Of a DNA stretch of 64,000 bases, positions 13,682 to 27,013 are shown one piece after another. A program made the translations under genes and the position numbers. The first letter of the stretch is position 1. Each line of letters opens with the position of its first letter. A model generated the notes under the pieces. The model was not told the origin of the DNA, did no database searches, and saw only the letters and a list, made by a program, of their open reading frames with translations. Source of the DNA: an uncultured Thermoplasmata archaeon (GTDB lineage: Archaea; Thermoplasmatota; Thermoplasmata; RBG-16-68-12); assembly GCA_963768855.1 (NCBI GenBank), contig CAVYJM010000011.1:32001-96000 (forward strand), in the 5' to 3' direction.

Positions 13682-15070
13682 ATGGCGAAGCGCTCTGCGA
13701 AGAAATCTGCGAGGAAGGTTGCCGCGAGGAGGGGACTGAACGGACCCCGGATCGTCGTCGCGCCGCCGGGCCCGAAGTCGAAAGCCGCGCTGGAACGCAA
13801 GGAGAAGTTCGTGACCAAGGGCCTGCGCGTCGGCCTGCCCCTCGAGCTGACGAGAGCCGAGGGTCCCTTCGTGCAGGACGCGGACGGCAACGTCTACGTC
13901 GACCTGGGCGTCGGCATCGGCGTGCACAACGCGGGCCACCGGCCCCCGGAGGTCATCCGGGCCGCCAAGGCGCAGCTCGACAAGCTCACTCACATCTGCT
14001 ACATGGTCTCCACGTACAAGCCGTACACGGACCTCGCCGAGGTCATGGCGGAGATCTGCCCGCCCGGGATGACGCAGAGCATCTTCCTGAACTCCGGGTC
14101 CGAAGCGGTCGAGAACGCGGTCAAGATCGCCCGCGCGTACACGAAGAAGCCCTGGATCGTCTCCTTCCGCACCGCGTTCCACGGCCGCACGCTGCTCGAC
14201 ATCAGCCTCACGGGCAAGGAGAAGCCCTACCGCGAGGGGTTCGGCCCCCTCGTGCACGAGGTCCTCATCACGGACTACGCTTACCCGTACCGCGACCCGG
14301 AGGGCCGCTCGCCCGCGGAGTGCGCCAAGGCGCGGGTCGAGGAGATCGAGGCGGCGATCACGAAGCCCGAAGTCGTCGGCCAAGTGGGCATGATCGTGGC
14401 GGAGCCCGTGCAGGGCGAGGGCGGCATCATCGTGCCGCCGAAGGAGTTCTTCCCCCTTCTCCGGAAGCTGTGCGACGACCACGGCCTCCTGCTCGTGGAC
14501 GACGAGGTCCAGGCGGGGATGGGCCGCACCGGCCTCCTCTGGGCGATCGACCACTGGAACACGGTCCCCGACCTGCTCGTGAGCGGCAAGGCACTCGGCG
14601 GTGGGCTCCCGCTCGGCGGAGTGACGGGTCCGCAGAAGATCATGGAGGCGCCCGGTCCCGCGAGCCTCGGCGGCACGTTCGGCGGCAATCCGGTCGTGTG
14701 CGCGGCGGCTCTCGAGGCCGTGAAGGGCATCCAGAAGATCCTCCCGAAGGTGCCCCGCCTCGAGGCGCTCATGCACACGCGGCTCGATCAGCTCTACGAG
14801 CGGTTCGAGCGGATCGGCGAGGTGCGCGGCATCGGCGCGATGTGGGGCATCGAGTTCGTGAAGGACCGGCGGACGAAGGAGCCGGACACGGAGCTTGCGC
14901 GCGCCGTCCAGCTGAACGGTTTGAAGAACGGCCTCATGCTCCTGACCGCGGGGTACCACAACAACTGCGTGCGGTTGCTACCCCCGCTGAACATCCCGCT
15001 CCCGCTCATGGGCCGGGCGTTCGACCGGCTCGAGGATACGATCGCCCAGGCCCTGGCGGGCAAGGCGTGA
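13682..15070 (+). CDS. gabT: Class III aminotransferase, 4-aminobutyrate/beta-alanine aminotransferase
   Basis: NSGSEAVENAVKIAR, FHGRT, AEPVQGEGG, DEVQAGMGRTG, SGKALGGG, GGTFGGNP. Confidence 0.9.
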   Translation: MAKRSAKKSARKVAARRGLNGPRIVVAPPGPKSKAALERKEKFVTKGLRVGLPLELTRAEGPFVQDADGNVYVDLGVGIGVHNAGHRPPEVIRAAKAQLDKLTHICYMVSTYKPYTDLAEVMAEICPPGMTQSIFLNSGSEAVENAVKIARAYTKKPWIVSFRTAFHGRTLLDISLTGKEKPYREGFGPLVHEVLITDYAYPYRDPEGRSPAECAKARVEEIEAAITKPEVVGQVGMIVAEPVQGEGGIIVPPKEFFPLLRKLCDDHGLLLVDDEVQAGMGRTGLLWAIDHWNTVPDLLVSGKALGGGLPLGGVTGPQKIMEAPGPASLGGTFGGNPVVCAAALEAVKGIQKILPKVPRLEALMHTRLDQLYERFERIGEVRGIGAMWGIEFVKDRRTKEPDTELARAVQLNGLKNGLMLLTAGYHNNCVRLLPPLNIPLPLMGRAFDRLEDTIAQALAGKA

Positions 15071-15083
15071 GGAGGTGCTGTGC

Positions 15084-16577
15084 ATGGCCCCGCAGGCGGT
15101 GACCCTGCTCCCCGAAGTCCAGAAGAACTACGGAGACCTGAAGAACTTCATTGGAGGGAAGTGGGTCGAGTCCCACGCCACGGAGTGGCTGGACGACACG
15201 AACCCCGCAACGGGACAGCGGATCGCGCGCGTGCCCCTGTCCCCGAAGGAGGAGGTGGACGCCGCCGTGCAGGCCGCGCTCGCGGCGTGGGAGGAGTGGC
15301 GCGAGACGCCACCGATCTCCCGCGCCCGCTACTTCTTCAACCTCCACGACCTCATGGAGCAACACTTCGAGGAGCTTGCGCGGATCATCTCGCAGGACCA
15401 CGGGAAGATCATCGACGAGGCGCGCGGCGAGGTGCGCCGCGCGATCGAGAACGTCGAGGTGGCCTCCGGGATTTCGAGCCTCATGATGGGCTACAACCTG
15501 GAGGACGGCGCGGCGGCAGGGATCGACGAGGAGGTCCTGTACCAGCCCCTCGGCGTTTTCGCGGGGATTAGCCCGTTCAACTTCCCCGCGATGGTCCAGT
15601 ACTGGTTCTGGCCTTACGCGGTGGCCACGGGGAACTGCTGGGTCGCGAAGCCTTCGGAGCAGGACCCGCTGGTCCAGGTCTACATGGCCGATCTGGTCGA
15701 GAAGGCCGGCTTCCCTCCGGGTGTGTTCAACCTCGTGAACGGTGCGAAGGAGAGCGTGGAGGCGATCTGCGACCACCCGGACATACGGGGCGTGTCGTTC
15801 GTCGGCTCGACAGCGATTGCGAAGCTCGTGTACGCGCGCTCCGCGTCCCACGGCAAGCGCGTCCAGTGCGGGGGCGGCGCGAAGAACCTCCTGGTCGTCC
15901 TTCCCGACGCGAAGCTGGACAAGATCGTGCCGAACATGATCTCCTCCGTGTACGGCACCGCGGGCGAGCGGTGCCTCGCGGGCTCCGTGATCGTCGGGCT
16001 CGACGAGGCGCACGATGCGGTCCGCAAGAAGTTCTCGGACGCCGCATCGAAGCTCAAGGTCGGGTACGGGCTTGACGAGACGGTCCAGATGGGCCCCGTG
16101 ATCACGAAGAAGCACCAGGAACGCGTGCTCGGGTACATCGACAAGGGCGAGGCGGAAGGTGCGAAGGTCGCCCTGGACGGCCGCAAGGTGAAGGTCTCCG
16201 GCTACGACGGCTATTTCGTCGGACCGACGGTCCTCGACGCGGTGACCCCCGACATGACCGTGGCCAAGGAGGAGATCTTCGGGCCCGTCGCGAGCTTCTT
16301 CACGATGGAGAACCTCGACGAAGCCATCGAATGGATCAACCGCAGCCCATATGGGAACGCGGCGTCCATCTACACATCGAGCGGAAAGGCGGCGCGCGAC
16401 TTTCGTTACCGCGTCCGCGCGGGGAGCATCGGAATCAACCTCGGCATCGCCGCGGCGATGGCCTACTTCCCGTTCGGAGGGATGAAGAACTCCTTCTTCG
16501 GGGATCTCCACCCCCAGGGCCGGGACGCGGTCCGGTTCTTCACGGAGAGCAAGGTCGTCATCACGCGCTGGGTCTGA
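15084..16577 (+). CDS. mmsA: CoA-acylating (methyl)malonate-semialdehyde dehydrogenase
   Basis: PFNFPAM, KPSEQDP, SFVGST, GKRVQCGGGAKN, AGERCLA, EEIFGPV, FPFGGMKNSFFGDLH. Confidence 0.92.
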   Translation: MAPQAVTLLPEVQKNYGDLKNFIGGKWVESHATEWLDDTNPATGQRIARVPLSPKEEVDAAVQAALAAWEEWRETPPISRARYFFNLHDLMEQHFEELARIISQDHGKIIDEARGEVRRAIENVEVASGISSLMMGYNLEDGAAAGIDEEVLYQPLGVFAGISPFNFPAMVQYWFWPYAVATGNCWVAKPSEQDPLVQVYMADLVEKAGFPPGVFNLVNGAKESVEAICDHPDIRGVSFVGSTAIAKLVYARSASHGKRVQCGGGAKNLLVVLPDAKLDKIVPNMISSVYGTAGERCLAGSVIVGLDEAHDAVRKKFSDAASKLKVGYGLDETVQMGPVITKKHQERVLGYIDKGEAEGAKVALDGRKVKVSGYDGYFVGPTVLDAVTPDMTVAKEEIFGPVASFFTMENLDEAIEWINRSPYGNAASIYTSSGKAARDFRYRVRAGSIGINLGIAAAMAYFPFGGMKNSFFGDLHPQGRDAVRFFTESKVVITRWV

Positions 16578-16581
16578 CGCG

Positions 16582-17022
16582 ATGGATCCTCCGGAGCTAA
16601 CCAACTTCGGTTCGCTGATCCGGTTCGCCCTTGGGCTCGAGACCGCGAGCGCCGTGTTCTACCAGGCCGCGGCCGGTCTCCTGGGCCCGGGACTGAAGGC
16701 CGACCTCGCCCGCGAACTCGCGGCGCAGCACGAGGACCGTCGGAGGTTGCTCGAGCGAACCCGGCAGCGGAGCTTGAACGAGATGGTGCTCGAGCCGATT
16801 AGCGGGCTGCAGGGGGCGCGATACGTCGTGGACCCGACTGCGGCAACAGCCCACGAGGTGCCTGCCAAGGCGGCCGCGATCGAGGAGGTCAGCTCCCTCT
16901 TCTACCGCGAGTCATCGGTGGTCGCGAAGTCCCTACTCACGGAGGCGGCTCGGACATTTCTGAAACTGGCCGAGGAAAACGGGCGGAATCTGGCACGCAT
17001 TCATGAGATCCTCGCACACTGA
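16582..17022 (+). CDS. Ferritin/rubrerythrin-like four-helix protein (degenerate metal site)
   Basis: Two repeats of A..LE..S..FY ... LA.E pattern; ExxH histidines are absent. Confidence 0.6.
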   Translation: MDPPELTNFGSLIRFALGLETASAVFYQAAAGLLGPGLKADLARELAAQHEDRRRLLERTRQRSLNEMVLEPISGLQGARYVVDPTAATAHEVPAKAAAIEEVSSLFYRESSVVAKSLLTEAARTFLKLAEENGRNLARIHEILAH

Positions 17023-17217
17023 CCGCGTCGCAAATTAGGGCGGTTAGGCGTACCTAAATGTGCATTCGACGGACGAAGTCCCAGCCATCGTGTTGCCTGA
17101 CAGCACGTCGCAGGGTGGTCGGGTTTCCTCCATGAGACGAACGAATTTCGGCATTCCTAAGAGGTTGTTCGATGGCTGTACTAGGTTCGGACTTGAAACT
17201 TGGTATGTAAAGGAGAC

Positions 17218-17225
17218 TATAAATA
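17218..17225 (+). promoter_or_regulatory. TATA box (TATAAATA) of the hxlR-tfb operon
   Basis: Canonical archaeal box about 38 nt upstream of ATG 17263. Confidence 0.65.
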
Positions 17226-17262
17226 CCCGGGCCTCCTGAGGTAACTCCGGGAGCAGCGGAAC

Positions 17263-17613
17263 ATGGCAAAGAACCAAATCCCCTGTGAAGGACCCGGGTG
17301 TGCCGGGCTGGTGGCCATCGGGCTTATCGGCTCCGAGCTCAAGCTCAGCGTCCTCCACGGGTTGATGAGCGGCCCGAAGCGCTTCAACGAGCTTCGCGCC
17401 TCCACGGGAATCTGCCAGAGTTCCCTCGCCAAGACCCTCAAGGAACTCGAGGAATCGGGCATCATGGAGCGCCGGGTCATCCTGGATCGTCCCGTGTCGG
17501 TGGAATACCACCTCACGCCGATGGGGGAGGACCTTTCGGACGCGCTTCGTGGCCTGGAGCGTTGGGCCAATCGATGGGTCGTGGCGGAGCATTCCCGAAA
17601 GGTGATCGCATGA
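17263..17613 (+). CDS. HxlR/DUF24-family winged-helix regulator with N-terminal cysteines
   Basis: GPKRFNELR, SLAKTLKELEESGIMERRV, VEYHLTPMGEDL, LERWAN; Cys8 and Cys13. Confidence 0.9.
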   Translation: MAKNQIPCEGPGCAGLVAIGLIGSELKLSVLHGLMSGPKRFNELRASTGICQSSLAKTLKELEESGIMERRVILDRPVSVEYHLTPMGEDLSDALRGLERWANRWVVAEHSRKVIA

Positions 17614-18608
17614 GCAACTTCCGATCGATGGACATGAAGAACGACGCCGTGAGCCGGAGCCCGAAGCCCCGAGAGGAGCGACAGGTCCGCGATACGGCGC
17701 GCTGCCCGAACTGTGGCAGCCTTGCAATCTACGTCGACCCGATCCGCGGCGAGCGGGTCTGTGACAACTGTGGCCTCGTGATCGACCAGGGCATGGTCGA
17801 CCAGGGCCCCGATTGGACCACGTTCGAGGGCGACGACCGGATCCGAGCGGGTCCGCCGCCGTCCGTCATGGCGCCGGACAAGGGCCTCGGCAGCATGGTG
17901 GGCAATGGCCTGCGCGACGCGAAAGGGAACCCGATCGACGCCCGGTCCGTCGCGGCGCTGAACCGCCTGCGCCGCGTGAGCCAGTGGACGCGGTACGACC
18001 GCACGGAGCGCGCGCTGGCCCCTGGCCTCGCGCAGCTCTCGAGCCTGTCCAGCCGCCTCGGTCTCGCCCCGGTCTTCCGGGAGCGGGCTGCAATCCTCTT
18101 GCGCCAGACGATCGAGGCGGGCCTGTCCCGCGGTCGGTCGATGGACGCGATCGTCGCCTCCGTCGTCTACTTGGCGTCCAAGCAGCTCGGTGCGCCCCGC
18201 GGGCTCCACGAGCTGGCCCAGGCGACGGGCGTGACGGTCCACCGGATCAGCCTGACCGCGAAGGTCGTGAGCCGGGAGCTCGGCGTGTTCGCCCGCGCGA
18301 GCCGCGCGGAGGACTTCGTCCCGAGGTTCGCATCCCAGCTCGAGCTCGCACCGCACGTCGGCGAGCGGGCCCTGTCCCTTGTCGGGCAGGTCAAGGACGC
18401 GAAGCTCCTCGAGGCCAACTCTCCCGTGGGCATCGCGGCCGGGGCGCTCTACCTCGCGTCCGAGGAGCTGGATGTCCCCGTGACCCAGGCCCAGATCGCC
18501 CGCCTGACGGGCGTCTCCGAGGTCACGATCCGCAAGCACTACCGTCTGCTCAAGGAAACCTTGACGCAATCCGGGGGGTACAACGAACCGTCCCATGAAG
18601 CCACGTGA
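17610..18608 (+). CDS. tfb: Transcription initiation factor IIB (TFB) paralog
   Basis: Zn ribbon CPNCG...CDNCG; two cyclin repeats (RGRSMDAIVASVVYLA; EDFVPRFASQL); HTH TQAQIARLTGVSEVTIR; ATGA overlap with the hxlR stop. Confidence 0.93.
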   Translation: MSNFRSMDMKNDAVSRSPKPREERQVRDTARCPNCGSLAIYVDPIRGERVCDNCGLVIDQGMVDQGPDWTTFEGDDRIRAGPPPSVMAPDKGLGSMVGNGLRDAKGNPIDARSVAALNRLRRVSQWTRYDRTERALAPGLAQLSSLSSRLGLAPVFRERAAILLRQTIEAGLSRGRSMDAIVASVVYLASKQLGAPRGLHELAQATGVTVHRISLTAKVVSRELGVFARASRAEDFVPRFASQLELAPHVGERALSLVGQVKDAKLLEANSPVGIAAGALYLASEELDVPVTQAQIARLTGVSEVTIRKHYRLLKETLTQSGGYNEPSHEAT

Positions 18609-18668
18609 TTCGTCGATTCGAATGATTAAAGAGGCGGACGGGGGTTCTACCCCACCGCCGGAGGCAGC

Positions 18669-18965
18669 TTGATCGCCGGGATCTGCGCAACCTGCGGACT
18701 CCCTAAGGAACTGTGCGTCTGCGAGGACCTGGGTCGCGAGACGACCCTTCTCCAAGTCGACCTCGACACCCGCCGCTATGGCAAGGCCGTGACGGTCGTG
18801 CGGGGTCTCGAATCTCGTCCGGACGAAGCCGCGAAGCTGGCACGCGAGCTCAAGAGGGGACTCGCGACCGGCGGCTCCGGGAAGGACGGTCTCATCGTTC
18901 TGCAGGGAGATCGCCGCAAAGACGTCGTCCGTCTACTGCAACAGAAAGGCTACACGGTCCGCTGA
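18669..18965 (+). CDS. sui1: Translation initiation factor aIF1/SUI1
   Basis: ICATCGLPKELCVCE, RRYGKAVTVVRG, LARELKRGLATGGS, LQGD. Confidence 0.93.
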   Translation: MIAGICATCGLPKELCVCEDLGRETTLLQVDLDTRRYGKAVTVVRGLESRPDEAAKLARELKRGLATGGSGKDGLIVLQGDRRKDVVRLLQQKGYTVR

Positions 18966-19026: not shown

Positions 19027-20061
19027 ATGAAGGCCGTCGTCCTGCCGCGCTATGGAGGGCCCGAGGTCCTGGAGTATGTCGAGGACCGCCCCGAACCCGT
19101 CCCGGGACCGGACGAGGTCCTCCTGCACGTGCACGCGGCGTCCATCAACCATCTCGACCTTGCCGTCCGCGCGGGGATCCCGACGCTGAAGCTCGTGCTC
19201 CCGCACGTGCTCGGCGCGGATGTCGCCGGCGAGGTCGCGCAGCTCGGCTCCGACGTCACGGGCTTCGAGCCCGGCGACCGCGTCGTCGCGAACCCGGGCC
19301 TCACCTGCGGCCACTGCGAGTTCTGCATCGCAGGCCAGGATTCCCTCTGTCGGGACTATCGCATCCTGGGGGAGCACGTTCCCGGCACGTACGCGGAGTA
19401 CGTCGCGGTCCGTGCGAAGAGCCTCCTCTCGATCCCGGTCGACATGGACTGGGCCACCGCCGCGGCGGCTCCCCTGGTGTTCATGACGGCGTGGCGGTTG
19501 CTCGTGACCCGCGCGGCGATCCGGCCCGGGGAGGACGTCCTGATTCTCGGGGCGGGGTCCGGCGTGTCTACGGCGGCGATTCAGATCGCCAAGCTGGCCG
19601 GTTGCACCGTCTACACGACGAGCTCGAGCGACGCGAAGCTCAAGCGCGCGAAGGAGATCGGCGCGGACGTCGTGATCAACTACAAGGAGATGCCCTGGAG
19701 CAAGGCGGTCTGGGAGCTCACGGGGAAGCGCGGCGTGGACGTCGTCCTGGACCACGTGGGCGAGGCCACGTTCAAGGACAGCGTCCGCTCCCTGCGGATG
19801 GGCGGGCGTCTCGTCGTCCCGGGCGCGACCACGGGAGCCCTGCCGCAGCTCGACCTCCGCTATCTGTTCTGGCGGCAGCTCTCGATCCTGGGTTCCACGA
19901 TGGCGAATCAGCGGGAGTTCGAGGAGGTCATGAAGCTCGTGTTCATGGGCCGCCTCAAGCCGGTCGTGGATCGGGTGTTCCCCCTCAGGGAGGCCCGGGA
20001 GGCCCATGCCTACCTCGAGCGCGGTGAGCAGTTCGGGAAGGTCGTCCTGAGCGTCCCGTGA
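19027..20061 (+). CDS. Zn-binding MDR alcohol dehydrogenase/quinone oxidoreductase family
   Basis: SINHLD, PHVLGADVAGEV, structural Zn CGHCEFC..C, GAGSGV, GKVVL. Confidence 0.92.
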   Translation: MKAVVLPRYGGPEVLEYVEDRPEPVPGPDEVLLHVHAASINHLDLAVRAGIPTLKLVLPHVLGADVAGEVAQLGSDVTGFEPGDRVVANPGLTCGHCEFCIAGQDSLCRDYRILGEHVPGTYAEYVAVRAKSLLSIPVDMDWATAAAAPLVFMTAWRLLVTRAAIRPGEDVLILGAGSGVSTAAIQIAKLAGCTVYTTSSSDAKLKRAKEIGADVVINYKEMPWSKAVWELTGKRGVDVVLDHVGEATFKDSVRSLRMGGRLVVPGATTGALPQLDLRYLFWRQLSILGSTMANQREFEEVMKLVFMGRLKPVVDRVFPLREAREAHAYLERGEQFGKVVLSVP

Positions 20062-20071
20062 CGGGTTCGCG

Positions 20072-20338
20072 TCACGCCTTCTTCCGGCGTCTCCGTGCCG
20101 CAGGGATCTTGGCCCGGATCTTGTCAAGAAGCTCCTGGGTCTCAGGGAAGTGCTCGGCCTGGTCCAGGGAGAAGAGGAGTTCGCCATCCAGGGCCACGTC
20201 GTAGACGCCGTGGTCCCCGGGCACGAGGCGCAGCCCCGAGAGCTTCGGGCCGAAGGCCTTCAGGATGGCGTCCGCGTCCTGCATCGCCTTGAACTGGTAG
20301 CGGCAAGGCAGGCAGTACGTGATGGTGACTTCGGGCAT
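20072..20338 (-). CDS. Rdx family (SelW/SelT/SelH-like) thioredoxin-fold protein
   Basis: ITYCLPCRY, LVPGDHGVYDVALDGELLFS, FPE. Confidence 0.88.
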   Translation of the reverse strand: MPEVTITYCLPCRYQFKAMQDADAILKAFGPKLSGLRLVPGDHGVYDVALDGELLFSLDQAEHFPETQELLDKIRAKIPAARRRRKKA

Positions 20339-24754: not shown

Positions 24755-25684
24755 TCACTCGTGGGCTTGGAGCCATCTCTCGACGTCGAGGGCGGCCATG
24801 CATCCGAAGCCCGCGGCCGTCACGGCCTGGCGGTAGCGATGATCGTGCACGTCGCCTGCGGCGAACACACCGTCCACGTTCGTGGCGGTCTGGAAGCCCT
24901 CGCGGGGCTGCAGGACGATGTAGCCCTTCTCCAGCTGAAGCTGCTCCCTGAAGACCTCGGTGGCGGGCGCATGGCCGATCGCGAGGAACAGTCCCTGGGC
25001 CTTGAGGTCCGTCGTGGCACCCGTCTTCACGTTCTTGACCCGAACACCTTCGACCTTCGTCTCGCCGAGGACGTCGACGACCTCGGAATCCCAGTCCACC
25101 TTGACGTTCGGCGTCTTGAGCAGCCGCTCCTGCATGATCTTGCTCGCGCGGAACTCGTGCCGGCGATGGACCACGGTCACGGTCTTGCAGAGCTTGGAAA
25201 GGTAGAGCGCTTCTTCCATGGCGGTGTCCCCGCCTCCCACGACGACCACGTCGAGCTGCTTGAAGAAGAAGCCATCACACGTCGCACACGCGGACACGCC
25301 GCGTCCCTTGAGGCGCTCTTCGTTCGGGAGGTTCAGGTACTTGGCGTTCGCACCCGTGGAGATGATGATCGCTTTCCCCTCATATTCCTGGTCCGCGACC
25401 CAGACACGGAACGGCTGCGACCGGAAGTCCACCTTCGTGACGTTGTCATCGACGAAGTCCGCCTTGAAGCGTTCCGCCTGTTTCCGCCAGAGGTCCATGA
25501 GCTCGGGGCCGAGCACGCCGTTCGGGAAGCCGGGGTAGTTCTCGACCTCGGAGGTGAGCATGAGCTGCCCCCCCGCCACCTGGCCCGCGATGACGAGCGT
25601 CTTCAGGTTCGCGCGGGTGGCATAGATGGCCGCGGTGAGTCCGGAAGGGCCCGAGCCGATGATGATCACGTCGTAGGGTGACAT
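24755..25684 (-). CDS. trxB: Thioredoxin-disulfide reductase
   Basis: IIGSGPSGLTAAIY, GGQL, VENYPGF, GVSACATCDG, VVGGGDTAMEEA, FAAGDV. Confidence 0.96.
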   Translation of the reverse strand: MSPYDVIIIGSGPSGLTAAIYATRANLKTLVIAGQVAGGQLMLTSEVENYPGFPNGVLGPELMDLWRKQAERFKADFVDDNVTKVDFRSQPFRVWVADQEYEGKAIIISTGANAKYLNLPNEERLKGRGVSACATCDGFFFKQLDVVVVGGGDTAMEEALYLSKLCKTVTVVHRRHEFRASKIMQERLLKTPNVKVDWDSEVVDVLGETKVEGVRVKNVKTGATTDLKAQGLFLAIGHAPATEVFREQLQLEKGYIVLQPREGFQTATNVDGVFAAGDVHDHRYRQAVTAAGFGCMAALDVERWLQAHE

Positions 25685-25783
25685 TCGTTCAAACGAAGGG
25701 GTCGGTGCAGTATAAGCGTTTCTCGAGGGGCTGGCAACGCGGGGCCGCATCGCGCTCTACCTTCATATCGGGGTTCCGACATC

Positions 25784-27013
25784 GTGGGTCCCTTGGCGTC
25801 GGACGATCTCGATCGGCTGCTCGCATTGCTGCCCACGGTGGACCATAAGCATGCGGTCCCACTCTTCGACCAGGTCATCAAGGACCTGGGGGCGGCAGGC
25901 CCGATCCTCCAGGGGCTCGTCTATGCCGCCTCGAACCACGATGATCCGCAGCTCCACACGCCCCACGGTCTCCTGACCATGGTGGCCGGACGCGAGCTCC
26001 TCCGGTTGACCCGTCCTCCCGGCGGCCTGGGCCTGCTGCGTTTCCTCGTCCTCTACAACTTCACGCTCCAGAGACGCGCCTTCGACGGGGCCGTTGGTCA
26101 GGCGATGATTCGCACCGTACCCGCCGCGGAACTCGATGAGCTCGGGGCGGCGTATCGGAAGGCGGTTCGCGGAGGCCTGGGCGACCAGGCAGCGAGCCTC
26201 CTCGGCCGGATTGCCACGGACTACGGCCTGGAATCGGCGGGCCATCTCGCGATCCGGTGTGCCCTTGGCGACGTGGGCCGCCTGGGGCACAACCTCGTCA
26301 TCGCGTCGGCGTATGTGCAGGCCGCCGAGATCGTGGGCGGGACGAGGGGACTGGTCCCCTTGATGAACCTCGGCCGGCTGCAAGCCTTCGCCCTGCAAGG
26401 AAGTCTTGGGCCCTTGATCCCAGAGCGGAGCGAATCGGACGCCCCTGCGGACGTCGAGGCCCTGGGAAAACTCGTCGAGGATGGCGCCTTCGATCAAGTC
26501 GAGGACGTGCTGGGAGCCCTCGCCTTCGCCGGGCAGGCGGATGAGGCGTACCGTCCGCTCTTGATCGCCGCGAGCGCCGATCCCGGGTTCCTCGGCCACT
26601 CCCTGAGTCTCGCGAACGCGGCTCGCGTGTCCTCTCGGTACCTCACCCCGTCCGAGAACGCCTGGCTCTCCTGGAAGCTCTATCGCACGCTCACGACGCG
26701 GTTCGGATACCCGGAGTTCCTCGCCCTCGGGAAGGGGGAATCCCTGGACCGCGAAGCGCTCCTTCCTGCCCTCGAGTCGAGCCTGCGATACCGGTCCCCT
26801 CCCGCCGAGCGCACGCTCCGTCAGGCGCTCGAGAACGACGTGCCGCTCGACGAGCTGCTCGCCACCGTCGTGAACTTCTACGGGAACTGGACGGTCGGCG
26901 AGAAGGAGCACACGATCAGCTACCTGAACGCCGCGCTGCAGACCGCGAAGTTCCTCGGGCGGGAGCAGGCGCTCCTGCCGCTGACGATCGCGCTCGGCAA
27001 GTTGCCGTTCTGA
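25784..27013 (+). CDS. Hypothetical all-helical protein with four His-centred repeats
   Basis: Long ORF with coding-like codon usage; repeats PHGLL, GHNLV, GHSLSLANA, EHTISYLNAA. Confidence 0.75.
   Translation: MGPLASDDLDRLLALLPTVDHKHAVPLFDQVIKDLGAAGPILQGLVYAASNHDDPQLHTPHGLLTMVAGRELLRLTRPPGGLGLLRFLVLYNFTLQRRAFDGAVGQAMIRTVPAAELDELGAAYRKAVRGGLGDQAASLLGRIATDYGLESAGHLAIRCALGDVGRLGHNLVIASAYVQAAEIVGGTRGLVPLMNLGRLQAFALQGSLGPLIPERSESDAPADVEALGKLVEDGAFDQVEDVLGALAFAGQADEAYRPLLIAASADPGFLGHSLSLANAARVSSRYLTPSENAWLSWKLYRTLTTRFGYPEFLALGKGESLDREALLPALESSLRYRSPPAERTLRQALENDVPLDELLATVVNFYGNWTVGEKEHTISYLNAALQTAKFLGREQALLPLTIALGKLPF

Follow-up and report, generated by a model that had tools for sequence, protein, structure and literature searches.

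To what use archaea put their multiple TFB paralogues is a long-standing question, and work on it has concentrated almost entirely on haloarchaea, Sulfolobales and Thermococcales. Pyrococcus TFB2, for instance, is an accessory TFB with a divergent B-finger/B-reader. Among bacterial regulators, YodB and QsrR are DUF24 repressors that sense quinones and diamide, and redox-sensitive anti-sigma/sigma pairs such as RsrA-SigR are co-transcribed. Alternative TFBs have been described among the haloarchaeal TFB paralogues (PMC2396416) and as TFB3 of Sulfolobus (PMC6101591), and in Halobacterium salinarum tfbB is controlled by RosR (PMC4287449). In Bacillus subtilis, HypR (YybR) is a MarR/DUF24 two-Cys redox sensor (PDB 4A5M/4A5N; PMC3351151), while HxlR is a formaldehyde-activated activator of RuMP genes (PDB 7BZD/7BZG) that forms a Cys11-Lys13 methylene bridge for which Lys13 is needed (PMC7835342). 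Both are activators whose binding to DNA rises on modification (PMC3351151, PMC7835342).

Here we describe an archaeal locus that brings together a regulator of this family (HxlR), a divergent TFB (TFBv) and a paralogue of the translation initiation factor aIF1 (sui1V). It lies in the window, by which we mean the whole stretch of 64,000 nucleotides that was analysed (Table 1). Like RosR and tfbB, it would pair an oxidant-responsive winged-helix regulator with the gene of a TFB paralogue that the regulator controls, gaining wider reach through a basal factor; like Pyrococcus TFB2, its TFB is accessory and has a divergent B-reader. In the described systems, however, regulator and tfb occupy separate loci, whereas here they form one coupled operon that includes aIF1, in a Thermoplasmata lineage without a cultured member. 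A TFB paralogue hard-wired in this way to a sensor-type regulator and a translation initiation factor offers a compact hypothesis on alternative-TFB control, one for whose test three recombinant proteins and 100 bp of promoter DNA would do. The host order, RBG-16-68-12, probably corresponds to Ca. Angelarchaeales. These are aerobic archaea, abundant in soil, whose part in oxidising ammonia or methane is under debate, and their regulatory wiring is for that reason of ecological interest.

Table 1. Coordinates of the hxlR-tfbV-sui1V cassette, its upstream elements and neighbouring genes in the window
Feature	Position	Strand	Description
Aminotransferase	13682-15070		upstream of cassette throughout g1
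ALDH	15075-16577		upstream of cassette throughout g1
Imperfect inverted repeat, candidate operator	17179..17205	.	TACTAGGTT-N9-AACTTGGTA (9-N9-9)
Promoter core	17210..17225	+	purine-rich BRE-like AAGGAGAC (17210-17217) and TATA box TATAAATA (17218-17225)
hxlR	17263..17613	+	ATG at 17263, stop 17611-17613, 116 aa; PF01638
tfbV	17610..18608	+	332 aa; start overlaps hxlR stop as ATGA; TFIIB PF00382 x2
tfb-sui1 spacer	18609..18668	+	60 nt, confined to window's subclade; from junction alignment
sui1V	18669..18965	+	98 aa, TTG start; aIF1/SUI1 paralogue, PF01253
MDR dehydrogenase	19027-20061		confirmed by Pfam
Rdx	20072-20338	-	confirmed by Pfam
Pyridine-nucleotide-disulphide oxidoreductase, TrxB size	24755-25750		331 aa, ~6 kb away

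The cassette occurs in soil and aquifer Thermoplasmata belonging to two genera (g1 and g6), in two families of the order. An HxlR orthologue was found in 33 of 37 g1 genomes and 4 of 4 g6 genomes; the other genomes of the order, which counts 79, yielded none. The order hxlR-tfb-sui1 holds at all 31 loci in which the three positions are assembled, and five further loci cut by contig ends are consistent with it. One genome, G064, was considered as a natural cassette without hxlR and rejected, its contig ending inside tfb. Distant HxlR homologues from other Thermoplasmata families had no tfb or sui1 within 4 kb at any of the 10 loci re-found (12 sought); the class-level tally of these homologues took in the unpublished genomes G264, G167 and G339, on which no conclusion rests.

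Pfam searches assigned hxlR to PF01638 (75.6 bits against a cut-off of 20.8; residues 21-107), tfbV to TFIIB (PF00382, twice, 100 bits) and Zn_Ribbon_TF (PF08271, 48.7 bits), and sui1V to SUI1 (PF01253, 58.6 bits). The ATGA overlap between hxlR and tfb recurs at 21 of 21 g1 loci. At the second junction, 21 of the 24 loci compared have a tfb/sui1 gap of -4, so that a TTGA overlap is the arrangement in most relatives; the gap is +60 in three. This 60-nt spacer comprises what is left of the 3' end of an ancestral tfb (…GAGGCAGCTTGA) and, ahead of the sui1 TTG, a GGAGG SD. A preliminary description of this DNA had read a TATA box, hxlR with Cys8 and Cys13, an ATGA overlap into tfb, and sui1; the sequence agrees, and the two peptides quoted there are exact (DWTTFEGDDRIRAG, TFBv residues 68-81; TQAQIARLTGVSEVTIRKHY, residues 292-311). 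The hxlR-tfb synteny that it put forward proved to be strictly conserved in both genera and families. Together, these observations indicate that hxlR-tfbV-sui1V is a lineage-specific, translationally coupled operon in which gene order and stop/start overlaps are fixed.

Five TFB genes are present in the genome, and that of the cassette is the most divergent and the lowest in score: against the NCBIfam TFIIB model NF001658 (cut-off 384 bits), TFBv reaches 230.7 bits and TFB-A 547. Each of the five genomes sampled has core clades TFB-A, -B and -C, while TFBv is confined to g1 and g6. In the tree, the TFBv proteins of these two genera form a single clade (SH-aLRT 100) whose long branch falls outside the core clades, TFBv having evolved several times faster than the core TFBs. 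The preliminary description had named as grounds for refutation that this be the only or primary TFB; counting the paralogues and placing them in a tree showed that it is neither. The results indicate that TFBv makes up a fourth, rapidly evolving TFB clade that comes on top of the three core ones.

The zinc ribbon of TFBv is intact, with all four cysteines (C32, C35, C51, C54) invariant, as are its two cyclin repeats; the protein aligns to Pyrococcus woesei TFBc (1D3U, 1AIS) over residues 130-318. Its B-reader is not canonical. The motif DW[TS][TP][FY] (DWTTF in the window) replaces the canonical GPEWRAF helix, and the loop lacks 3-4 residues relative to each of the order's three core TFB clades and 4 relative to human TFIIB. 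The preliminary description had noted a shorter B-reader that lacks its Arg. The shortening stands; the loss holds for the helix Arg of EWRAF only, since the loop Arg (R79 in RIRAG; R-x-G) is kept and invariant in TFBv. Core TFB-C (EWSAY/EWTAY) is also without the helix Arg, so that this substitution alone is no mark of special function. The BRE-reading helix-turn-helix had been set against the canonical sequence as well: in the recognition helix, GVSEVTIRKHY, the V and R of EVTIR are retained, and the difference is limited to N->K and R->H/Y.

The third gene product, sui1V, scores 101.7 bits against NF002096 (cut-off 98). Like the aIF1 encoded in the ribosomal cluster of the same genome, to which it is 54% identical, it has a SUI1 domain and an N-terminal Cys knuckle (CxxC…CxC; CATCGLPKELCVC). 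It differs in its relocation behind tfb, in its TTG start (GTG in g6) and in its overlap, at most loci, with the tfb stop. The ancestral aIF1 gene sits between L29 and Rpp29 (L29-SUI1-Rpp29-S17 cluster), and in the tree sui1V falls outside the clade of these ribosomal-cluster copies. The cassette sui1 is the sole aIF1 detected in all four g6 genomes, of which G034 has a completeness of 97%, and in several g1 genomes of good quality, including G003 and G072; in the ribosomal clusters of these genomes, L29 and Rpp29 adjoin with no sui1 between them. In the sister genus g10, sui1 stands alone and showed no synteny with the cassette flanks. These findings indicate that sui1V is a paralogue that replaced the cluster aIF1 in several lineages; that a regulatory operon should have taken in an essential translation factor is unusual. 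Because the cassette supplies the only aIF1 detected in g6, G003 and G072, the operon is not silent until stress in these genomes.

An AlphaFold2 model of HxlR (pLDDT 85; H14-22, H25-35, H41-48, H52-65, E68-73, E79-84, H86-107) predicts a winged-helix fold in which helices 1-4 are followed by a beta wing and a long helix 5. The top Foldseek matches were YodB, HypR, HxlR and QsrR (TM 0.7-0.85) and the best PDB sequence matches YodB, HxlR and HypR, with YodB leading in both sequence (E 6.6e-14) and fold. Among 12 HxlR orthologues from the two genera, Cys8, Cys13, His32 and Cys51 are invariant, and the recognition helix is invariant among the orthologues too. Cys8 is part of the N-terminal tail and His32 of helix 2; in the model, Cys13 and Cys51 occupy the N-cap positions of helix 1 and of recognition helix 4, respectively. 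The preliminary description had singled out Cys8 and Cys13 and had named beforehand their lack of conservation as grounds for refutation; both are invariant among orthologues. Cys51 is a third cysteine, besides the two it mentioned. Cys13 aligns with the sensing cysteines of HypR (Cys14) and B. subtilis HxlR (Cys11) and is retained in more distant class-level homologues. We conclude from the model and the alignments that HxlR has the DUF24 fold, the family's sensing cysteine (Cys13) and, in addition, clade-specific invariant Cys8, His32 and Cys51.

The closest counterparts each match this protein in part. HypR belongs to the same Pfam family and has the same fold, its reactive Cys14 at the helix 1 N-cap corresponds to Cys13, and both proteins have a second conserved Cys in the helix 3-helix 4 turn region; Cys51, however, aligns to HypR Thr53, four residues after HypR Cys49, and the invariant Cys8 and His32 are additional in the archaeal protein. 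As an activator whose DNA binding is raised by oxidation, HypR also matches the upstream, activator-type position of the repeat described below, but its target is a detoxifying oxidoreductase, whereas the target here would be an initiation-factor operon in an archaeon, known from sequence and a predicted model. YodB and QsrR (PDB 5HS7-9, 4HQE/4HQM) share the N-terminal sensing Cys; they differ as repressors with palindromic operators that overlap bacterial promoters and have half-sites about one helical turn apart, in contrast to arms 18 bp apart upstream of the BRE/TATA. B. subtilis HxlR, the family namesake, is an activator in which Cys11 corresponds to Cys13, and the RuMP pathway is found in the host order too (PMC9038741), but its Lys13 partner is absent here and the archaeal hxlR does not lie beside RuMP genes.

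Upstream of hxlR, an SD-like GGAG (17250-17253) precedes the ATG, and the usual archaeal TATA-to-TSS distance would place the start of transcription near 17248. Across 26 orthologous upstream regions from the two genera, conservation of the block AAAcgAaAC-TAtnTATa reaches at least 90%. The inverted repeat consists of two ACYNRGT boxes, 18 bp centre to centre, with the right arm ending 4 bp before the BRE. Both boxes are kept in 23 g1 promoters, the right box also in g6. The arms match at 9 of 9 positions in L093 and at 7 of 9 in the window, and an automated repeat search of 17023-17262 called no inverted repeat there; the support for the repeat is therefore its conservation across species and not the window alone. 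In the 2.87-Mb genome GAAACNTRGTAY occurs twice, and the composite ACYNRGT-N11-ACYNRGT occurs three times (about one expected), this spacing being not enriched over the whole genome relative to spacings 5-19. One other composite match, at C11:410938, has no obvious promoter context. The conserved repeat is essentially unique in the genome, and this search gave no regulon of HxlR boxes to propose.

Its position upstream of the BRE/TATA is of the UAS, or activator, type and makes the repeat a candidate operator; in archaea, the usual binding site of an activator is upstream of the pre-initiation complex (PMC4287449). In B. subtilis HxlR bound to DNA, 34.8 A separate the two recognition helices, or about one helical turn (PMC7835342), against 18 bp between the arms here, and a single HxlR dimer would therefore fit the repeat poorly. 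It is possible that two dimers or a different binder occupy the repeat.

How the cassette works we infer from sequence. We see about an even chance that HxlR is a thiol- or electrophile-sensing regulator which, through control of its own operon, sets the dose of an accessory TFB and aIF1. A literature search found no paper that brings HxlR and TFB together in this way. HxlR would bind the upstream inverted repeat in its activator-type position; an oxidant, quinone or aldehyde would oxidise or alkylate its thiols and change its binding to DNA, as in HypR or B. subtilis HxlR; and HxlR would thereby tune its own operon and the dose of TFBv together with aIF1. The altered B-reader and BRE-reading helix of TFBv might then favour a subset of promoters. 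The signal could equally be an electrophile or aldehyde or an oxidant. Since some lineages have sui1V as their sole aIF1, expression would be modulated above a basal level rather than switched on and off. The preliminary description had proposed a stress-switched, redox-gated alternative-TFB module. The accessory nature of the TFB, the synteny and the cysteines speak for it, but the term stress-switched has to be weakened, as lineages with a single aIF1 need the operon when unstressed.

The same dependence on the cassette for aIF1, in g6 and several g1 genomes, would suit a constitutive housekeeping operon that supplies aIF1 and one more general TFB, with HxlR as a homeostatic autoregulator, the Cys and His residues as a structural or metal site and no stress signal. 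We consider such an operon somewhat unlikely. C8, C13, H32 and C51 could indeed form a Cys3His site, but Cys13 is the reactive sensing Cys of the family (PMC3351151, PMC7835342), and all characterised close structural relatives of HxlR are thiol-based sensors. The genome search yielded no regulon-wide motif and conservation of the redox neighbours stops at the genus, both as expected of a housekeeping role; the several-fold faster evolution and remodelled B-reader of TFBv, on the other hand, are unlike a housekeeping factor, and three core TFBs are retained in every genome examined.

A further-reaching version of autoregulation by a thiol-sensing HxlR, which we regard as doubtful, is a self-contained module. 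A thiol-reactive signal would act on HxlR beside its own BRE, obligatory translational coupling would co-deliver HxlR, a promoter-selective TFB with its rebuilt B-reader and aIF1 in fixed ratios, and transcription and translation initiation would be re-programmed together. HxlR might, in addition, act directly on TFBv or together with it, either as a recruitment factor or as an anti-TFB gated by redox state. If true, direct action of HxlR with or on TFBv would be an archaeal counterpart of sigma/anti-sigma logic.

With the same architecture, formaldehyde or another aldehyde may serve as the signal, like formaldehyde for B. subtilis HxlR, and tie an alternative initiation factor to C1 or amine catabolism, as the membership of the HxlR family and the RuMP formaldehyde assimilation of Ca. 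Angelarchaeales (PMC9038741) might suggest. The Cys8-x4-Cys13 pair could conceivably be formaldehyde-bridged, yet no Lys stands two residues after the sensing Cys (C13-A-G in g1, C-P-A or C-H-A in g6). ALDH and aminotransferase genes accompany the cassette throughout g1 but are not kept in g6, and we judge this version improbable.

Least probable, and in our estimate very much so, is that HxlR acts on TFBv itself and not (only) on the operon, either as a cofactor dedicated to recruiting the TFB to its promoters or, gated by its thiols, as an 'anti-TFB' that sequesters it, with coupling setting the stoichiometry: the strict ATGA coupling, the exclusive co-occurrence of both genes, the operator-like site abutting the BRE and the analogy with RsrA-SigR would fit, but the intact winged-helix DNA-binding fold and invariant recognition helix are those of a DNA-binding regulator, and we know of no DUF24 protein that binds a basal factor. 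Complex prediction for an HxlR dimer with TFBv, run without controls, gave an ipSAE of 0.00 in both runs and speaks for neither binding nor its absence.

The preliminary description had also pointed to Rdx, an MDR oxidoreductase and TrxB nearby. All are present, the TrxB-like gene at some distance, but they are syntenic within g1 only. We accordingly rejected them as the mark of a redox regulon: the g6 cassettes have different flanks, with MetE, DUF2203, ferredoxins and a peptidase.

Translation of the region and Pfam searches bear out the gene layout proposed in the preliminary description: a gene for an HxlR/DUF24 regulator (hxlR) is joined to one for a variant TFB (tfbV, product TFBv) by an ATGA overlap that holds the hxlR TGA and the tfb ATG, and sui1 (sui1V), encoding an aIF1/SUI1 paralogue, follows. 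The peptides quoted there match the sequence exactly. The window (C11:32001-96000) belongs to a 2.87-Mb assembly with 66% G+C that is 93.6% complete. Homologues of the cassette proteins carry names of Thermoplasmata or Thermoplasmatota MAGs, and relatives with the same cassette, whose sources are grassland soil, aquifer sediment and soil-MAG catalogues, probably belong, to judge from isolate names (EA_, RBG_), to the GTDB order RBG-16-68-12, named Ca. Angelarchaeales, whose members are likely obligate aerobes with the RuMP pathway (PMC9038741). A literature search found no paper on such an hxlR-tfb-sui1 cassette.

Features of the hxlR-tfbV-sui1V cassette and its surroundings (window positions)
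Feature	Position	Strand or orientation	Description
ORF	16582-17022	+	146 aa, helical; no Pfam or NCBIfam match; directly 5' of cassette promoter
Inverted repeat	17179-17205		Imperfect 9-N9-9, formed by two ACYNRGT boxes
TATA box	17218-17225		TATAAATA; purine-rich BRE-like stretch directly 5'
hxlR	17263-17613	Co-directional with tfb and sui1	116 aa; PF01638, 75.6 bits
tfb (tfbV)	17610-18608	Co-directional with hxlR and sui1	332 aa; TFIIB repeats and TFIIB zinc ribbon (Pfam)
sui1 (sui1V)	18669-18965	Co-directional with hxlR and tfb	98 aa; TTG start; SUI1 (Pfam)
Oxidoreductase	24755-25750	-	331 aa, pyridine-nucleotide-disulphide type, thioredoxin-reductase size; ~6 kb downstream of cassette
ORF	25784-27013	Divergent from 24755-25750 oxidoreductase	409 aa; no family match

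Two genera share the cassette as a conserved, translationally coupled operon. TFBv orthologues occur in 21 of 24 other genomes sampled from the window's own genus, g1 (78-97% identity), and in all three sampled from g6, a second genus in another family of the order (48-52%); in the order's other families the only matches (~40%) are core TFBs. Screening one genome for each GTDB species yielded 36 loci with a TFBv orthologue. hxlR lies upstream and sui1 downstream in all 31 loci, from both genera, in which the three positions are assembled; the other five end at contig breaks and are consistent with this order. The ATGA overlap is present in 21/21 g1 loci and a TTGA overlap links tfb to sui1 in 21/24, replaced in the window and two close relatives by a 60-nt spacer that contains a GGAGG and a remnant of the former tfb 3' end. 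Of the order's 79 genomes, HxlR orthologues were found in 33/37 from g1 and 4/4 from g6, and in none from any other genus. HxlR homologues at greater distance occur in other parts of the class; in the 10 of 12 such loci where the homologue was re-found, neither tfb nor sui1 lies within 4 kb.

TFBv is an accessory, divergent TFB and not the only or primary one. Besides three TBP genes, the host genome carries five distinct TFB genes and, on a small contig, a near-identical duplicate of a TFB; TFBv scores lowest among its TFBs, with 230.7 bits against the NCBIfam TFIIB model (cut-off, 384), compared to 547 for the canonical TFB-A. A maximum likelihood tree was built from the TFBs of six genomes in the order, each of which contains the core clades TFB-A, B and C. 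TFBv groups with its orthologues in a clade of its own with full support; the long branch leading to this clade and the long branches within it indicate a rate of evolution several times that of the core clades. Among orthologues, both cyclin repeats, the zinc-ribbon cysteines (C32, C35, C51 and C54) and R79 and G81 of the loop R-x-G are invariant. The B-reader helix reads DW[TS][TP][FY], versus EWRAF, and the B-reader loop falls short of that in clades A, B and C by 3-4 residues and of the human TFIIB loop by 4. Of the variant B-reader initially described, the shorter loop and missing helix Arg stand, but the loop Arg (R79) is kept; loss of the helix Arg alone is not diagnostic because clade C lacks it too. 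The BRE-reading helix, GVSEVT[IL]RK[HY]Y versus GVTEVTIRNRY, retains the EVT-I/L-R core, with two residues after it changed.

Elsewhere, ~30 TFB paralogues of Nitrososphaera and other Thermoproteota (loci L130-L159), 28-30% identical to TFBv, were matched by either of the search peptides GVSEVT[IL]RK and DFV[PS]RFAS[QE]; if the former was the match, a second lineage of soil archaea may share the Asn-to-Lys change of the BRE-reading helix. None of these paralogues has hxlR or sui1 beside it. The host's fifth, very divergent TFB (C6:147903-149675, outside the window) has an EWVAY B-reader and a long branch, and adjoins one of the three TBP genes. This tfb-tbp pair is repeated near-identically at C24:1466-3167, on a 24.7-kb contig. 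It could reflect either a basal-factor pair that is mobile or was duplicated recently, or redundancy in the assembly, for which contamination is estimated at 7.7%.

HxlR bears its family's sensing Cys together with invariant Cys and His residues specific to its clade. Cys8 and Cys13, the N-terminal cysteines to which a redox role had been ascribed, are invariant in g1 and g6 orthologues, as are Cys51 and His32. Cys13 aligns with HypR Cys14 and B. subtilis HxlR Cys11, the position of the reactive Cys common to DUF24 regulators (PMC3351151, PMC7835342). In an AlphaFold2 model (pLDDT 85), whose closest fold matches are YodB, HypR, HxlR and QsrR, Cys13 caps helix 1, Cys51 caps the recognition helix, and Cys8 lies within a flexible N-terminal tail. 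In the alignment, Cys51 lies in the helix 3-helix 4 turn that also holds HypR Cys49, four residues beyond it, making a HypR-like intersubunit disulphide plausible. Unlike B. subtilis HxlR, the window protein lacks the Lys required for a formaldehyde Cys-Lys bridge (PMC7835342).

An alignment of 26 orthologous upstream regions revealed a sharp footprint: a conserved BRE/TATA block and, immediately 5' of it, two ACYNRGT boxes 18 bp apart. One relative has a perfect version of the resulting inverted repeat and the window a 7/9 version, and the right box is also present in g6; a repeat search of the window alone did not place it above chance, and its support is this conservation. Elsewhere in the genome the motif is almost absent, which points to a dedicated, probably autoregulatory, candidate site rather than a broad regulon. 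It occupies the usual position of archaeal activators, just upstream of the BRE (PMC4287449), and HypR (PMC3351151) and B. subtilis HxlR (PMC7835342) are both activators. In the complex of HxlR with DNA the recognition helices are separated by about one helical turn (PMC7835342), so arms 18 bp apart are a poor fit for one DUF24 dimer; two dimers, or a different binder, may occupy the site.

The host genome contains two SUI1 genes. The higher-scoring one sits in the ribosomal protein cluster, flanked by L29 and Rpp29, where five other families of the order carry their single SUI1. The cassette copy shares 54% identity with this gene and groups outside the ribosomal-cluster copies, which form a well-supported clade. 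It is the only SUI1 detected in 4/4 g6 genomes, one of them 97% complete, and in several good g1 genomes (94% and 90% complete), where L29 and Rpp29 have no sui1 between them. aIF1 is a core initiation factor; therefore normal growth of those lineages must entail expression of the operon or, at the least, of sui1. The order L29-SUI1-Rpp29-S17 is ancestral, retained in five families and part of g1 (host copy at C7:100474-101119, L044, outside the window; further loci compared, L192-L194 and L203-L206); SUI1 has left the cluster in g6, several g1 species and the sister genus g10, whose relocated stand-alone copy groups with g1 cassette copies.

The start codon of cassette sui1 is TTG in every g1 orthologue (window start area, 18609-18680) and GTG in g6; the stand-alone g10 gene and the ribosomal-cluster copy use ATG. 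The usual TTGA overlap with the tfb stop suggests translation by termination-reinitiation. Since aIF1 discriminates against non-AUG starts, such a start on its own gene could provide negative feedback. Two TFBv-related database proteins (P0076 and P0107) combine TFIIB and SUI1 Pfam domains, either as real fusions by frameshift at the TTGA overlap or through gene-calling read-through.

Family knowledge and promoter anatomy give roughly even odds to a model in which HxlR would sense a thiol-reactive or electrophilic signal and autoregulate its own operon, setting the dose of TFBv and aIF1. The main rival, a constitutive operon without a stress signal, seems to us unlikely. Barring an internal promoter, the need for sui1 in normal growth leaves room only for a version of the originally suggested stress-switched module that modulates expression above a basal level; a pure switch does not hold where the cassette aIF1 is the sole copy. 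Rdx, an MDR dehydrogenase and a TrxB-sized flavoprotein, earlier taken to favor a redox module, are all present near the cassette; this neighborhood is conserved within g1 only, with unrelated flanks in g6, and therefore adds no support. The 146-aa ORF occurs in part of g1 only, and many species lack it in the interval from ALDH to hxlR. The closest precedent is RosR of Halobacterium, which controls tfbB from a separate locus (PMC4287449), whereas here regulator and tfb share one operon.
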